Source: Escherichia coli
GTDB taxonomy: Bacteria; Pseudomonadota; Gammaproteobacteria; Enterobacterales; Enterobacteriaceae
Reading direction: 5' to 3' (one strand)
Assembly (NCBI RefSeq): GCF_003018255.1
Contig: NZ_CP027440.1
DNA length: 64,000 bases
The notes under the pieces were generated by a model, which did not search any database, was not told the DNA's origin, and was given only the letters and a program-made list of their open reading frames with translations. Both the position numbers and the translations under genes were made by a program. This document shows, one piece after another, positions 9,025 to 57,849 of the stretch; position 1 is the stretch's first letter, and every line of letters begins with the position of its first letter.

Positions 9025-9243
9025 TTAGCGAATAAATTTCCATACTGAGGAAGGGATCTTGTCGTACAGTTTATTCATGGTCAATTCGGCGAGGCGGTGA
9101 TCTGCGGCTGAGTAAAATACCGCCAGTTCATTATCTGATAATTCGTATTTATTTTTCTCGATAACACGCTCCAGCGTGTCAATTGTCTGGCAACGACGTA
9201 AACGCATTAAATAATCGGTTTTTGTTAAAGGTTTTTCGGACAT
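9025..9243 (-). CDS. hha: Haemolysin expression-modulating protein Hha
   Basis: 72-aa product [72 protein letters not shown]; internal start of ORF 9025..9489. Confidence 0.95.
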
Positions 9244-9268
9244 ACTTCTACCCATGGTTGTAATAATT

Positions 9269-9643
9269 CTAACAAGATAAACTCGCAGGATTCTCTTTCG
9301 TCGCATTGACAAAACAACGGAATAGTCGATTACCTGACTTCCGCCATTTCTGAAGATCCTGCATATTAATACCATAACTACTGAACAACATAAAGGTGTC
9401 ATCCAGATATTCGTCGATCTGCTCAATGAGCTTATTGTCTTCATTATACTTAATTTTGTAATTAAGTGCGAAGGTCGCAATATGCTCAATCAGTTCATTC
9501 AACTGGAGGTTGATCGCCGAGGTTGGGTCGTTAACCCAGCCATGATTGCTTTCTTCAAGGTTTGCAAGACAGTCATGATACAGGGTTTCACAGAGAAACT
9601 TAAGCTGCGCGATATCATGTCTTTTGGGTGAGTATTCATCCAT
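9269..9643 (-). CDS. tomB: Hha toxicity modulator TomB
   Basis: 124-aa ORF directly upstream of hha, recognised TomB (YbaJ) sequence. Confidence 0.9.
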
Positions 9644-10149
9644 AACGCGTCCCCTTCTTAGCGGTTGAACTAACGGACACCTTTCGGGATGGAAAAAACT
9701 TACTGACCTGGACTTGCCCTCTCGTTTGTTAGCTTAACTATAAGCCACTCTTTGCAGGTTTTCATCGCATTATTACGAAAAATTACAATTAGGAAGGAAG
9801 CGGGACAGGACTCACTTTTTCATACTAGCACTAACCCGCAGCAGGTAAAAGCAGTTTGCTCGAACTGTTCATAACATTTCAGGATTATCGCCAGATGAAA
9901 TTGGTAACACTAATACCAGGATTGCTCTGAATATGACGTAATAACCGAGGAATGAATAAAGAATTACCGTAAATAATTAAGAATAGCCTCTAAATGATTA
10001 TGGATTATTAAATCTATTAGCGCTACTTAATATAAATTAACTAACAATCAGTATTTTTTATGAATTTTATACGTGTTTAATACTGGTTTTCGTATGAGAT
10101 CCTGAGTTGGTGGTTCAATGACTCCTTAATGTTCGTCGGTTATGCATAA

Positions 10150-10178
10150 AAAAGGCCGCTTGCGCGGCCTTAGTGATT
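10150..10178 (-). terminator. Rho-independent terminator downstream of acrB
   Basis: GC-rich hairpin ggccgcgcaagcggcc followed by T-run on the minus strand just after the acrB stop. Confidence 0.6.
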
Positions 10179-10188
10179 ACACGTTGTA

Positions 10189-13341
<3,153 letters not shown>

Positions 13342-51984: not shown

Positions 51985-52638
51985 CTTAAGAAGTCCGTCG
52001 GTCAGGGGGAGCATGAACTCTCCATCCTCACCGGAGTTGAGCTGGTTGTCAAACGTGGCGAGACCATCGCACTGGTGGGCGAGTCGGGATCGGGTAAGTC
52101 AACTTTGCTGGCGATCCTCGCCGGGCTGGATGACGGCAGCAGTGGCGAAGTGAGTCTGGTGGGACAACCGCTACATAATATGGACGAAGAAGCGCGGGCA
52201 AAGTTGCGCGCGAAGCACGTCGGCTTTGTTTTTCAGTCATTTATGTTAATTCCTACCCTTAACGCGCTGGAAAACGTCGAGCTTCCGGCGCTGCTGCGCG
52301 GTGAGAGTAGCGCGGAAAGTCGTAACGGGGCGAAAGCGTTGCTCGAACAGTTAGGGCTGGGTAAACGTCTGGATCATCTTCCGGCACAGCTTTCCGGCGG
52401 TGAACAGCAACGAGTGGCGCTGGCACGAGCCTTTAACGGTCGACCTGATGTGCTGTTTGCCGACGAACCCACCGGCAATCTTGACCGACAGACGGGCGAT
52501 AAAATTGCCGACCTGCTATTTTCCCTCAACCGTGAGCATGGCACCACGTTGATTATGGTGACCCACGACCTGCAACTGGCGGCACGCTGCGACCGCTGCT
52601 TACGGCTGGTGAACGGGCAATTGCAGGAGGAAGCATGA
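51952..52638 (+). CDS. ybbA: LolD-like ABC transporter ATP-binding protein YbbA
   Basis: Walker A GESGSGKST, signature LSGGEQQR. Confidence 0.9.
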   Translation: MPAENIVEVHHLKKSVGQGEHELSILTGVELVVKRGETIALVGESGSGKSTLLAILAGLDDGSSGEVSLVGQPLHNMDEEARAKLRAKHVGFVFQSFMLIPTLNALENVELPALLRGESSAESRNGAKALLEQLGLGKRLDHLPAQLSGGEQQRVALARAFNGRPDVLFADEPTGNLDRQTGDKIADLLFSLNREHGTTLIMVTHDLQLAARCDRCLRLVNGQLQEEA

Positions 52639-55049
52639 TTGCACGTTGGTTCTGGCGCGAATGGCGCTCGCCGTCGCTATTAATTGTCTGGCTGGCGCTA
52701 AGCCTGGCGGTGGCCTGCGTGCTGGCGCTGGGCAATATCAGCGATCGCATGGAGAAGGGCTTAAGCCAGCAAAGCCGGGAGTTTATGGCGGGCGATCGGG
52801 CGTTGCGCAGTTCACGCGAAGTGCCACAAGCGTGGCTGGAGGAAGCGCAAAAGCGCGGCCTGAAAGTCGGCAAGCAGCTGACTTTCGCCACAATGACCTT
52901 TGCAGGCGACACACCGCAGCTGGCGAACGTCAAAGCGGTGGATGATATCTACCCGATGTATGGCGATCTGCAAACTAATCCCCCTGGCCTGAAACCGCAG
53001 GCGGGCAGCGTATTGCTGGCCCCACGCCTGATGGCACTGCTTAACCTGAAAACAGGCGACACCATCGACGTGGGTGATGCCACCTTGCGGATTGCCGGAG
53101 AAGTGATTCAGGAACCGGATTCCGGTTTTAACCCCTTCCAGATGGCTCCGCGTCTGATGATGAATCTGGCGGATGTCGATAAAACCGGAGCCGTGCAGCC
53201 GGGGAGTCGGGTCACCTGGCGCTATAAATTCGGCGGCAGCGAGAACCAGCTCGACGGCTATGAGAAATGGTTGTTACCCCAGCTTAAACCTGAACAACGC
53301 TGGTACGGTCTGGAACAGGACGAAGGCGCGCTGGGGCGATCGATAGAACGTTCGCAACAGTTCCTGCTGCTTTCGGCGCTTCTGACCTTGCTGCTGGCGG
53401 TGGCGGCGGTTGCGGTGGCGATGAATCATTACTGTCGCAGTCGCTACGACTTGGTGGCGATCCTCAAGACGCTGGGGGCAGGGCGAGCGCAACTGCGTAA
53501 GTTAATCGTCGGTCAGTGGTTGATGGTGCTGGCGCTTTCAGCCGTTACCGGTGGTGCGATAGGCCTGTTGTTCGAAAACGTGTTGATGGTGCTGCTCAAG
53601 CCCGTTTTGCCTGCTGCACTACCGCCAGCCAGCCTCTGGCCGTGGTTGTGGGCGCTGGGCACCATGACGGTCATCTCGCTGCTGGTGGGGCTACGACCGT
53701 ACCGCTTGTTGCTGGCAACGCAGCCTTTACGCGTATTACGTAATGATGTGGTCGCGAACGTCTGGCCGCTGAAGTTTTATCTGCCGATTGTCAGTGTGGT
53801 GGTTGTGCTGCTGCTCGCCGGATTAATGGGTGGCAGCATGCTGCTTTGGGCGGTGCTGGCGGGCGCGGTAGTACTGGCTTTGCTGTGCGGTGTGCTGGGC
53901 TGGATGCTGCTGAATGTACTTCGCCGCATGACGCTGAAATCGCTACCTCTGCGCCTGGCGGTTAGCCGCCTGTTACGTCAGCCGTGGTCAACGTTAAGCC
54001 AGCTTTCGGCATTTTCGCTCTCCTTTATGCTGCTGGCGCTGTTGCTGGTATTGCGTGGCGATCTGCTCGACCGCTGGCAGCAGCAGCTACCTCCAGAAAG
54101 CCCGAACTACTTTTTAATTAACATCGCCACAGAACAGGTAGCACCGCTAAAAGCGTTCCTCGCGGAACATCAGATAGTCCCGGAATCGTTTTATCCGGTG
54201 GTGCGGGCGCGGCTGACGGCGATTAACGATAAGCCGACAGAAGGCAATGAAGATGAGGCGCTCAATCGCGAACTCAATCTTACCTGGCAAAATACGCGGC
54301 CCGATCATAATCCGATTGTCGCCGGTAACTGGCCGCCAAAAGCCGATGAAGTGTCGATGGAAGAGGGGCTGGCGAAACGCTTAAACGTTGCCCTCGGTGA
54401 TACCGTGACTTTTATGGGCGATACCCAGGAGTTCCGCGCTAAAGTGACCAGCCTGCGCAAAGTGGACTGGGAAAGTCTGCGGCCTAATTTCTATTTTATT
54501 TTCCCTGAAGGGGCATTAGACGGGCAACCGCAGAGCTGGCTTACCAGTTTCCGCTGGGAGAATGGCAACGGCATGTTGACGCAACTCAACCGCCAGTTCC
54601 CTACTATTAGCCTGTTAGACATTGGCGCGATTTTAAAACAGGTCGGTCAGGTGCTGGAGCAGGTAAGTCGGGCGCTGGAGGTGATGGTGGTGCTGGTCAC
54701 CGCCTGCGGTATGTTGCTGTTGCTGGCACAGGTGCAGGTGGGAATGCGTCAGCGTCATCAGGAGCTGGTGGTGTGGCGCACACTCGGTGCGGGGAAAAAA
54801 CTGCTGCGTACCACGTTGTGGTGTGAGTTCGCCATGCTTGGGTTTGTTTCTGGCCTGGTAGCCGCAATTGGTGCGGAAACGGCGCTGGCAGTGTTGCAGG
54901 CGAAAGTGTTTGATTTTCCGTGGGAGCCAGACTGGCGATTGTGGATTGTGCTGCCGTGCAGCGGTGCACTGCTGCTGTCGCTTTTCGGCGGCTGGCTGGG
55001 TGCGCGACTGGTTAAGGGTAAGGCGCTGTTCAGGCAGTTTGCGGGATGA
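52635..55049 (+). CDS. ybbP: FtsX-like ABC transporter permease YbbP
   Basis: 804-aa duplicated FtsX-type permease overlapping ybbA stop. Confidence 0.9.
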   Translation: MIARWFWREWRSPSLLIVWLALSLAVACVLALGNISDRMEKGLSQQSREFMAGDRALRSSREVPQAWLEEAQKRGLKVGKQLTFATMTFAGDTPQLANVKAVDDIYPMYGDLQTNPPGLKPQAGSVLLAPRLMALLNLKTGDTIDVGDATLRIAGEVIQEPDSGFNPFQMAPRLMMNLADVDKTGAVQPGSRVTWRYKFGGSENQLDGYEKWLLPQLKPEQRWYGLEQDEGALGRSIERSQQFLLLSALLTLLLAVAAVAVAMNHYCRSRYDLVAILKTLGAGRAQLRKLIVGQWLMVLALSAVTGGAIGLLFENVLMVLLKPVLPAALPPASLWPWLWALGTMTVISLLVGLRPYRLLLATQPLRVLRNDVVANVWPLKFYLPIVSVVVVLLLAGLMGGSMLLWAVLAGAVVLALLCGVLGWMLLNVLRRMTLKSLPLRLAVSRLLRQPWSTLSQLSAFSLSFMLLALLLVLRGDLLDRWQQQLPPESPNYFLINIATEQVAPLKAFLAEHQIVPESFYPVVRARLTAINDKPTEGNEDEALNRELNLTWQNTRPDHNPIVAGNWPPKADEVSMEEGLAKRLNVALGDTVTFMGDTQEFRAKVTSLRKVDWESLRPNFYFIFPEGALDGQPQSWLTSFRWENGNGMLTQLNRQFPTISLLDIGAILKQVGQVLEQVSRALEVMVVLVTACGMLLLLAQVQVGMRQRHQELVVWRTLGAGKKLLRTTLWCEFAMLGFVSGLVAAIGAETALAVLQAKVFDFPWEPDWRLWIVLPCSGALLLSLFGGWLGARLVKGKALFRQFAG

Positions 55050-55477: not shown

Positions 55478-56933
55478 ATGAGCGGAAAACCAGCGGCGCG
55501 TCAGGGAGATATGACTCAGTATGGCGGTCCCATTGTCCAGGGTTCGGCAGGTGTAAGAATTGGCGCGCCCACCGGCGTGGCGTGCTCGGTGTGTCCGGGC
55601 GGGATGACCTCGGGCAACCCGGTAAATCCGCTGCTGGGGGCGAAGGTGCTGCCCGGCGAGACGGACCTTGCGCTGCCCGGCCCGCTGCCGTTCATTCTCT
55701 CCCGCACCTACAGCAGCTACCGGACGAAGACGCCTGCGCCGGTGGGGATTTTTGGCCCCGGCTGGAAAGCGCCTTCTGATATCCGCTTACAGATACGCGA
55801 TGATGTACTGGTACTCAACGACAACGGCGGACGGAGCATTCACTTTGAGCCGCTGCTGCCGGGTGAGGCGGTGTACAGCCGCAGCGAGTCCCTGTGGCTG
55901 GTGCGTGGCGGTAAGGCAACGCAGCCGGACGGCCACACGCTGGCACGGCTGTGGGCGTCGCTGCCGCCGGATATCCGGTTAAGCCCGCATCTTTACCTGG
56001 CGACCAGCAGCGCACAGGGGCCGTGGTGGATACTGGGGTGGTCTGAGCGGGTGCCGGGTGCTGAGGACGTACTGCCAGCGCCGCTGCCGCCGTACCGGAT
56101 GCTTACCGGGCTGGCGGACCGCTTCGGGCAGACGCTGACGTACCGGCGTGAGGCCGCCGGTGACCTGGCCGGGGAAATCACCGGCGTGACGGACGGTGCC
56201 GGGCGGGAGTTCCGTCTGGTGCTGACCACGCAGGCGCAGCGGGCGGAAGAGGCCCGTAAACAGCACACCGCTTCCTTATTTTCCCCTGACACCCCCCGCC
56301 CTCTTTCAGACTCTGCGTTCCCCGACACACTGCCCGGTACGGAATACGGCCCCGACAGGGGCATCCGTCTTTCGGCGGTGTGGCTGATGCACGACCCGGC
56401 ATACCCGGAAAGCCTGCCCGGTGCGCCACTGGCGCGGTACACGTATACGGAAGCCGGTGAACTGCTGGCGGTATATGACCGCAGCAATACGCAGGTGCGC
56501 GCTTTCACGTATGACGCGCAGCACCCGGGCCGGATGGTGGGGCACCGTTATGCGGGAAGGCCGGAGATGCGCTACCGCTACGACGATGCGGGGCGGGTGG
56601 TGGAGCAGCTGAACCCGACAGGCCTGAGTTACCGCTACCAGTATGAGCAGGACCGCATCACCATCACGGACAGCCTGAACCGGCGAGAGGTGCTGCATAC
56701 AGAAGGCGGGGCCGGGCTGAAGCGGGTGGTGAAAAAAGAACTGGCGGACGGCAGCGTCACGCACAGCGGGTATGACGCGGCAGGAAGGCTCACGGCACAG
56801 ACGGACGCGGCGGGACGGCGGACAGAGTACGGCCTGAATGTGGTGTCCGGCGATATCACGGATATCACCACGCCGGACGGGCGGGAGACGAAATTTTACT
56901 ATAACGACGGGAACCAGTTAACGGCGGTGGTGT
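55478..56933 (+). pseudogene. rhsD: Rhs protein, N-terminal part (PAAR-like N-terminus and start of YD-repeat core), interrupted by an IS element
   Basis: Product MSGKPAARQGDMTQYGGPIVQGSAGVRIGAPTGVACSVCPGG...; reading frame runs into IS sequence and stops at 56971. Confidence 0.85.
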
Positions 56934-56967
56934 CCTTGACCCACGATATTCAGACAGTCGTTGTATC

Positions 56968-57849
56968 TTAAGTTGACGTTACCCGCTGACGTCGATATTC
57001 CCTTGGTGAGAGATAACCTAACGCACTATGCGGATGGGTTTCATTGTAATGCTCGATCGCCACTGCAAGGTTATGCAATGCCGTTCTTACATTCGGTTTC
57101 GGCATGAACGCGATGTAGTCTTCTTTCATCGTTTTCACGAACCTTTCTGCCATTCCATTGCTCTGAGGGCTACTGACTGCCGTTGTGCAGGGCTCCAGAT
57201 TCAACTCTCTGGCGAACTGCCGTGTTTCATGAGCTGTATAAGCCGAACCGTTATCAGTCAGCCACTGGATTGGCCGTTCCGCTCCTTTATCGCCAAAGCG
57301 TTTTTCTATTGCTCCTAACATGACATCCTGCACCGTTGCTTTGTCATAACCTCCCGTGCTTGCGGCCCAGTCTATGGCTTCACGATCGCAACAGTCCAGT
57401 GCGAACGTGACACGCAGTTTTGCGCCATCATCACAACCGAACTCAAAGCCATCGGAACACCAGCGCTGGTCGCTTTCCTTCACCGATATTCGGCCTTTAT
57501 GTTCCCGCTGCGGCCGTGAAGGTTTGTCATGTAACAACAACAGGTTATTTTCGCTCATTATCCGATAAACGCGCTTTGCATTCACGAACGGCACTCCTTT
57601 GTTACGGGACTGTCGTCTGAGAATGGCCCAGACACGACGATAGCCATATGTCGGCATATCGCTGATGATATCAAGGATACGTGCTAACACTTCCGCATCC
57701 GCAGCCTCATCACATCTGCGACGACGTTTATTCGGCTTATTACCAGATGTTTTCATCCGTTGTGCCAGTTGCGCACGCGACACGCCCAGAATACGGCTTA
57801 CCAGGGTTATTCCTTGTCCGTTGGCAACAAGGGCGCATGCGCTATCCAT
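56968..57849 (-). CDS. IS3-family transposase OrfB (DDE integrase core)
   Basis: Product contains ...WCSDGFEF...[12 protein letters not shown]...WLTDNGSAY...HPHSALGY..., IS2 InsD-like. Confidence 0.85.

Follow-up and report, generated by a model that had tools for sequence, protein, structure and literature searches.

The intergenic spacer between tomB and acrB in Escherichia coli most probably consists of ordinary, and for the most part documented, signals of its two flanking operons, all of them on the minus strand. In this arrangement, transcription of acrAB would end at a conserved intrinsic terminator, 17 nt past the acrB stop codon. About 400 bp of very AT-rich DNA, bound by H-NS and containing a few short protein-binding islands, would then serve as the upstream control region of tomB-hha. 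The tomB-hha operon would be transcribed mainly from a σ70/σS promoter, P1, located about 87 nt before the tomB ATG, and the envelope-stress regulator CpxR would activate P1 from a tandem repeat, GTAAT-N5-GTAAT, which lies at a fixed spacing just upstream of the -35 element. Translation would begin from a strong ribosome-binding site in a leader that is short and unstructured. The core of this picture (the terminator, the promoter, Cpx control, and H-NS binding) is already known: the binding of RNA polymerase, σS, and H-NS within the spacer, as well as control by CpxR, comes from published work.

Within the window (the whole 64,000-nt stretch of E. coli DNA that was analysed), the spacer occupies positions 9644-10188, exactly 545 bp. 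It is bordered on one side by tomB (9269-9643) and then hha (9025-9243) and on the other by acrB (10189-13338). All three genes lie on the minus strand, and this order and orientation agree with the initial annotation, which had placed the spacer upstream of an hha-tomB operon. That annotation had also described a 545-bp noncoding, ORF-free gap between tomB and acrB that is conserved in K-12. Its coordinates are exact, and "ORF-free" holds in the sense that no open reading frame exceeds 40 codons. In K-12 MG1655 (K-12 position = window position + 471065), the spacer is likewise 545 bp long and carries no annotated feature. The two sequences are 98.5% identical, with 8 differing positions, none of which falls within 9644-9792; identity to NZ_AP025214.2 is 100%. 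The spacer is also AT-rich, as described. Its overall GC content is 0.378 vs 0.521 for the 64-kb window, and the 150 bp with the lowest GC content of all 64 kb (0.227) start at 9951. However, the extreme AT content is limited to approximately 9900-10100; positions 9644-9900 are about 41-42% GC. The density of TpA steps is 0.159 in 9900-10075, compared to 0.043 in the window, a 3.7-fold excess.

Of 5426 complete E. coli genomes, 5423 carry a single copy of the spacer, with 97-100% identity. The 20 E. coli records that rank highest have no annotated feature under it, nor do 39 of 40 drawn from across the ranking; in the 40th, a natural isolate, it is split by an IS1 insertion. For comparison, 80 orthologous loci were fetched from Enterobacteriaceae. 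Every locus that could be measured (76/76) has acrB and tomB as neighbours, and in all measured loci except one, the gap between them is 439-563 bp. Because this range is kept in all but a single case, the length of the spacer is not a matter of chance. The alignments are a mosaic: strongly conserved islands, each of them short, alternate with DNA for which no alignment between genera is possible. The anatomy of the spacer, the conservation of each element within it, and the fixed spacing described below are observed directly in these sequences.

The acrB terminator and the search for a hidden gene

The presence of an acrB terminator in the spacer, proposed in the initial annotation, is borne out. 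A terminator scan identifies an intrinsic terminator at 10146-10171 (minus strand), which begins 17 nt past the acrB stop codon. It is composed of an 8-bp stem with six GC pairs and a 4-nt loop (10152-10171), followed by six T residues. Across 22 genera, 100% of the alignment cells in the stem are paired, and two of the eight pairs show compensatory changes (AU/GC and CG/UA). The 3' UTR of acrB is consequently short, about 45 nt. No second terminator was found on either strand of 9200-10400, and that of acrB acts in one direction only.

These features bear on the idea, raised in the same annotation, that the spacer could hide a small RNA. Such an RNA might be free-standing, derived from the 3' end of acrB, or antisense to the tomB leader. 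The spacer is indeed long and AT-rich and has kept its length, a TATAAT-like hexamer is conserved in its distal part (discussed later), and a scan of the spacer and seven orthologous loci against Rfam returned weak matches, among them uxuA (22.8 bits) and STnc180 (15.4 bits). However, the gathering scores for these two families are 66.8 and 50 bits, respectively, and neither the E. coli spacer nor any of the seven related loci has a match near its gathering score. In the four best alignments for the window, that of uxuA among them, the match is largely to the terminator hairpin of acrB. STnc180 was dropped as a lead, because it does not reappear in the Salmonella spacer. In addition, the acrB terminator is the sole terminator-like site in the region and is unidirectional, the acrB 3' UTR is only about 45 nt long, and the DNA between the conserved islands is unalignable across genera. 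The K-12 reference annotation has no sRNA in the spacer, and the literature searched contains no report of an sRNA or a small protein there. Thus, an independent sRNA is highly improbable. A lineage-specific, unstructured transcript is possible.

The other product suggested for this interval was a small protein. The best candidate is a 13-codon ORF with a TTG start at 10077-10118 (minus strand), the only small ORF of the spacer with a strong ribosome-binding motif, a perfect AAGGAG at 10122-10127. Against its translation, the motif is only 3 nt from the TTG, and the ORF lies directly downstream of a strong terminator and has no predicted promoter. It is also located within a segment of about 70 bp (10075-10145) that is specific to Escherichia: the segment is a gap in the alignments of Salmonella, Citrobacter, Enterobacter, and most other genera, and it is poorly conserved even among Escherichia species, four of which (other than E. 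coli) have lost the ORF or carry it in disrupted form. A repeat or mobile-element origin for the segment was rejected, given that the spacer is found once per genome. The remaining small ORFs (40, 24, 21, and 11 codons) contain stops or frameshifts or have lost their starts in sister Escherichia species. With all five of the small ORFs tested being broken among the sister species, an unannotated small protein is exceedingly improbable.

Promoters, leader, and the GTAAT repeat upstream of tomB

At its tomB-proximal end, the spacer contains a predicted main promoter, P1 (9737-9765, minus strand). Its -35 element, ATGAAA (9760-9765), is separated by 17 nt from a -10 element, TATAGT (9737-9742), giving a match of 9/12 in a promoter scan. 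Hexamers alone are weak evidence here, since the whole 1.2-kb region yields 3 promoter-like sites vs 3.2 in shuffled sequences. Conservation and published binding data provide more. The TATAGT is found in 74 of 77 orthologues, and a genomic SELEX site for the RpoD holoenzyme lies in the spacer, with a predicted promoter that is exactly ATGAAA-17-TATAGT (PMC3946193). A σS ChIP-seq peak has also been assigned to tomB, with no known start inside the peak (PMC4447067). When converted, this peak corresponds to approximately 9632-9827 in the window and covers both P1 and the GTAAT repeat. The older K-12 numbering is offset by about 776-778 bp, a value that was checked against a PdhR site at window 10643-10659. 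That PdhR SELEX site, designated "tomB" (PMC7660256), itself maps within acrB, outside the spacer. From the position of the P1 hexamers, we infer that transcription would start at about A9730, approximately 87 nt upstream of the tomB ATG.

A second, weaker promoter, P2, is a candidate at 9822-9849 (minus strand). The promoter scan pairs TTTACC with an extended -10 sequence, TGCTAGTAT, across a 16-nt spacer. Speculatively, P2 would start transcription at about 9815, which would make the leader about 172 nt long. In Citrobacter, Klebsiella, Raoultella, and one of two Salmonella subspecies, a corresponding TGnTAnAAT or TATAAT lies equally far from the CpxR-like box; Enterobacter and four of five other Escherichia loci lack it.

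The predicted tomB leader (9644-9730, minus strand, about 87 nt) contains a Shine-Dalgarno sequence, AAGGGGA (9650-9656), and a conserved CCAUCCC (9686-9692). A structured leader in E. coli was considered and rejected: the fold has a z score of 0.17 relative to shuffled sequences and shows no covariation. The only consensus helix pairs UCCC with the Shine-Dalgarno sequence, and its bases are invariant and, thus, without covariation. Predictions pair CCAUCCC with the ribosome-binding site in roughly half of the other genera or somewhat more, but not in E. coli. The long 5' UTR that had been thought probable is not favoured, as the conserved P1 predicts a leader of about 87 nt and the orthologous operon of Yersinia has starts at 106 and 188 nt. 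About 400 bp of the spacer would be regulatory DNA rather than leader, because it lies upstream of the main promoter.

Just upstream of P1 is a 23-bp element, TAATTGTAATTTTTCGTAATAAT (9769-9791), which is near-invariant in the 77 orthologues. Within it, a direct repeat of the form GTAAT-N5-GTAAT (GTAAT-TTTTC-GTAAT, 9772-9786) has its centre about 49 bp before the start predicted for P1. The distance from the start of the GTAAT box to the start of the -10 is 45 nt in 64 of 65 loci. The 23-bp element is also kept in Cronobacter, Pantoea, and Erwinia, and in the latter two genera it is retained even though tomB-hha does not adjoin acrB.

The repeat resembles the binding site for CpxR. Tandem GTAAA-N5-GTAAA boxes lie upstream of the -35 element at cpxP, degP, yebE, and yccA. 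Like these Cpx-activated promoters, the tomB promoter has a direct repeat of pentamers with 5-bp spacing just upstream of a weak -35; unlike them, its pentamers are GTAAT rather than GTAAA. Compared to the CpxR pentamers GTAAA (TTTAC on the other strand), the repeat matches at 8 of 10 positions and has the N5 spacing, and the published consensus is TTTAC-N4-8-TTTAC (PMC13353760). Both tomB and hha are listed in the CpxR regulon of RegulonDB, and tomB belongs to the CpxR iModulon (PMC7657598). In the same five-TCS study, tomB is absent from the direct CpxR targets defined by ChIP (PMC7657598). In addition, ybaJ, the old name of tomB, is found within a run of Cpx-regulon names in an EcoCyc list of response-regulator targets, in which the regulators themselves go unnamed (PMC3118216).

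More is known in Yersinia, where CpxR~P shifts the ymoB-ymoA promoter region in a gel and promoter activity depends on CpxR (PMC13353760). The ATG is preceded by two ymoB-ymoA starts, TSS1 at a distance of 188 nt and the proximal TSS2 at 106 nt; relative to the CpxR motif, TSS2 is 56 nt downstream and TSS1 is 26 nt upstream (PMC13353760). The operon order is the same as in E. coli (tomB/ymoB, then hha/ymoA). In both operons, the proximal start would have a CpxR motif about 50-56 bp ahead of it and is itself about 90-106 nt from the ATG, and the second Yersinia start, 26 nt upstream of the motif, has a counterpart in the candidate P2 start, about 28 nt upstream of the box; this is a comparison of distances rather than of aligned sequences, and the E. 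coli starts in it are predicted ones. Together, these features suggest that the GTAAT repeat is a CpxR-box-like activator site, which fits the listed CpxR control of tomB-hha. For E. coli, the case for direct binding of CpxR comes from RegulonDB and from the orthologous operon of Yersinia.

Conserved islands in the AT-rich upstream region

The most sharply constrained element farther upstream is a 14-bp near-palindrome at 9917-9930, a candidate RcsB/RcsAB box. In E. coli it reads TCAGAGCAATCCTG and is sharply bounded, with flanks that are not conserved. Across the orthologues it takes the form T-n-R-G-A-nnnn-T-C-Y-T-R, of which TAGGAATATTCCTA, TAAGAATATTCCTG, and TAAGAATATTCTTA are the commonest versions. 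Positions G4, A5, T10, and C11 are invariant in 77/77 orthologues, and T1 (72/77), R3 (76/77), Y12 (77/77), and T13 (73/77) are nearly or fully so. It lies about 190-225 bp upstream of the main promoter; among 43 loci measured, the distance is 200-225 bp in 40 and 129 bp in the other three. The possibility that the island is an RNA or DNA hairpin was rejected. In 35 of the 77 orthologues, the symmetric positions 3 and 12 are A and C and so are not complementary, which argues that the island is a protein site instead.

Several observations make RcsAB a candidate for the protein. At most two mismatches to TAAGAATATTCCTA are present at the island in 54 of 80 loci, compared to 3 such matches in the other approximately 460 kb of those loci. 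The string TAAGAATATTCCTA is the RcsAB-box consensus and appears alongside the term "RcsAB box" in PMC4325325. The island shares with the RcsAB box TaAGaatatTCctA of wza/cps and rcsA its form as a 14-bp near-palindrome, and orthologous sites match this consensus at 12-14 of 14 positions. Like the RcsAB boxes of capsule promoters, which are typically placed far upstream, it is distant from its promoter. There are also differences. The E. coli copy matches the consensus at only 9 of 14 positions, and since the window contains 166 equally good sites, this match is by itself insignificant; the distance to the promoter also varies by about two helical turns. All five of the E. coli mismatches are at positions that vary among the orthologues. 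A scan with the RcsAB consensus finds sites with four mismatches upstream of K-12 rcsA (TAAGGATTATCCGA, 264 bp upstream of the ATG) and upstream of wza, which we take to be the published rcsA box and a published RcsAB box, respectively.

The literature searched contains no link between Rcs and tomB-hha, either in binding or in expression, and PMC11879457 does not mention tomB. Inhibition of LolCDE raises tomB expression 5.9-fold, a response that does not discriminate among regulators because Rcs, Cpx, and RpoS are all induced. Whether 9917-9930 is a working RcsB/RcsAB site, which would put tomB-hha under Rcs as well as Cpx, is close to an even question, with the balance slightly against it. 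Rcs control of tomB-hha is a reasonable and testable prediction, because the island is constrained in 77/77 orthologues and is near consensus outside Escherichia. It would be the one addition that the spacer makes to the known picture.

Two further conserved elements are evident in the conservation profile and the alignments. A small island at 9865-9880 has the consensus ..TAAC.CAATGAAT.., and a longer, AT-rich block is located distally at 9999-10070 (minus strand). The latter, with the consensus AAAATCATAAAA..CTTATTGT..GTTTATTTT..AAATAAG..TATAAT, is conserved across most genera and sits in the stretch of lowest GC content in the window. It could be an H-NS nucleation region, an array of transcription-factor sites, or a weak distal promoter. 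Consensus sequences for ArcA, PhoP, OmpR, IHF, Fur, NagC, and MarA, compared by eye, gave no convincing fit to the block.

The last hexamer of the distal block is relevant to the proposal that a long, structured 5' leader, similar to a riboswitch or thermosensor, takes up most of the spacer and is transcribed from a promoter near 10004-10009. Such a distal promoter would make the leader about 350 nt long. In 44 of 77 orthologues, a promoter-like site with TATAAT or CATAAT as its -10 scores at least 9 there. A start upstream of the CpxR site exists in Yersinia, and pairing between CCAUCCC and the ribosome-binding site is predicted in many genera, as noted above. In E. coli, however, the hexamer is AATAAT (10004-10009), its -35 is poor, and the site fails the promoter scan. 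The 250 nt between the distal hexamer and P1 are unconserved except for short islands that look like protein sites, one of which, the palindromic island, has not kept the complementarity expected of paired bases. Furthermore, the proximal leader folds no better than shuffled sequence, and even the upstream start of Yersinia lies no farther than 188 nt from the ATG. A long structured leader is, therefore, very unlikely. In some genera, given the conserved TATAAT, there may be a promoter far upstream and with it a long leader.

The preferred reading, in which this AT-rich DNA is an upstream control region, includes binding by H-NS. The 10-bp high-affinity H-NS motif is TCGATAAATT, and no close match to it is present in the AT-rich core of the spacer. 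Allowing two mismatches yields a single match, at 9775, which falls in the CpxR-like element. The region resembles the H-NS-bound, AT-rich regions upstream of stress and virulence promoters in its extreme AT content, its dense TpA steps, and the H-NS genomic SELEX site reported in this spacer, which overlaps the RNA polymerase site (PMC3946193); it differs from them in lacking a close match to the high-affinity motif in its AT-rich core. H-NS would be a candidate repressor of tomB-hha. The published SELEX site also upholds the earlier suggestion that the spacer contains binding sites for nucleoid proteins.

Alternatively, the AT-rich DNA beyond the terminator and the proximal promoter might be functionless filler. 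Most of it is unalignable between genera, and about 70 bp is specific to one lineage. In published work, a transposon inserted between tomB and acrB was still recovered after growth in competition for 700 generations, and, as described above, IS1 splits the spacer in a natural E. coli isolate. Yet filler would not be expected to show what this DNA shows: a length of 439-563 bp in all but one measured locus, a 14-bp island with four invariant positions in 77/77 orthologues set between unconstrained flanks, a distal block conserved across most genera, and reported H-NS binding. Filler is, on this evidence, unlikely. The islands are better read as protein sites within a control region, with the protein for each being a candidate.

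Envelope stress and the H-NS system

The spacer is cleared as a candidate for a hidden gene; it is an ordinary terminator plus the promoter region of an operon that has been well studied. Hha acts as a partner of H-NS, a global silencer, and is itself modulated by TomB. Three features appear to come together in the spacer: control by Cpx, binding of H-NS, and a site that resembles an RcsAB box and is under strong constraint. If the RcsAB-like site is indeed functional, one operon would be added to a known regulon, with no new kind of mechanism, and the H-NS silencing system would, via Hha, also come under the control of Rcs, an envelope-stress phosphorelay. Across the Enterobacteriaceae, the amount of a co-repressor of H-NS would then be tied to two envelope-stress pathways.

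An RcsAB-like island in the tomB-acrB spacer

The spacer between tomB and acrB contains a 14-bp island (window positions 9917-9930), which matches the RcsAB-box consensus or comes close to it. This island is kept in all 77 aligned Enterobacteriaceae spacers (77/77), with G4, A5, T10, and C11 as its invariant positions, and among the orthologous loci (L003-L082) the RcsAB-like sites lie at -334 to -237 relative to the tomB ATG. A literature search found no paper connecting Rcs to tomB-hha. A previous genomic-SELEX study reported a PdhR site named 'tomB', AAcgGaatcgACCAgcT (PMC7660256). This site (8/14) is located at 10643-10659, within the acrB coding sequence and outside the spacer.

Within E. 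coli, fewer than 80% of the spacer is present in one piece in 15 of the genomes having a spacer match. In strain TUM13773 (NZ_CP128912.1), the spacer is split by an IS1 insertion. Elsewhere in the window, only 55050-55477 matches the spacer's AT-richness (150-bp GC of 0.23-0.25); it is an intergenic gap flanked by plus-strand ORFs at 52635-55049 and 55478-56971.

The tomB leader and the tomB-hha genes

The tomB leader contains a conserved element, CCAUCCC (9686-9692), whose predicted pairing partner is the ribosome-binding site at 9650-9656. This pairing is predicted for 56% of the orthologous leaders, with a mean probability of 0.49; the predicted probability is ~0 in E. coli and E. albertii.

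In the Erwiniaceae (Erwinia amylovora locus L083 and Pantoea locus L085, 1004-1500), tomB-hha and acrB are not neighbours. Here a 117-codon ORF, whose function is not assigned, has its 3' end within the conserved TGTAATTTTT(A/G)GTAA element, and thus, the CpxR-like box overlaps a stop codon. The protein collection also includes proteins of 185-205 residues (P0005, P0008, P0010, P0026, and others) that carry both a TomB (PF10757) and an Hha (PF05321) domain; they appear to be either TomB-Hha fusions or artefacts of gene calling.

The acrB-proximal part of the spacer

Immediately past the acrB terminator is a 13-codon TTG ORF with a perfect AAGGAG (10077-10127). The segment holding it is found only in Escherichia, and the ORF shows no conservation among other Escherichia species. 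The conserved distal AT-rich block (9999-10070) ends in the hexamer TATAAT in most genera, but in AATAAT in E. coli. This block is a candidate that could serve as a weak, far-upstream promoter.
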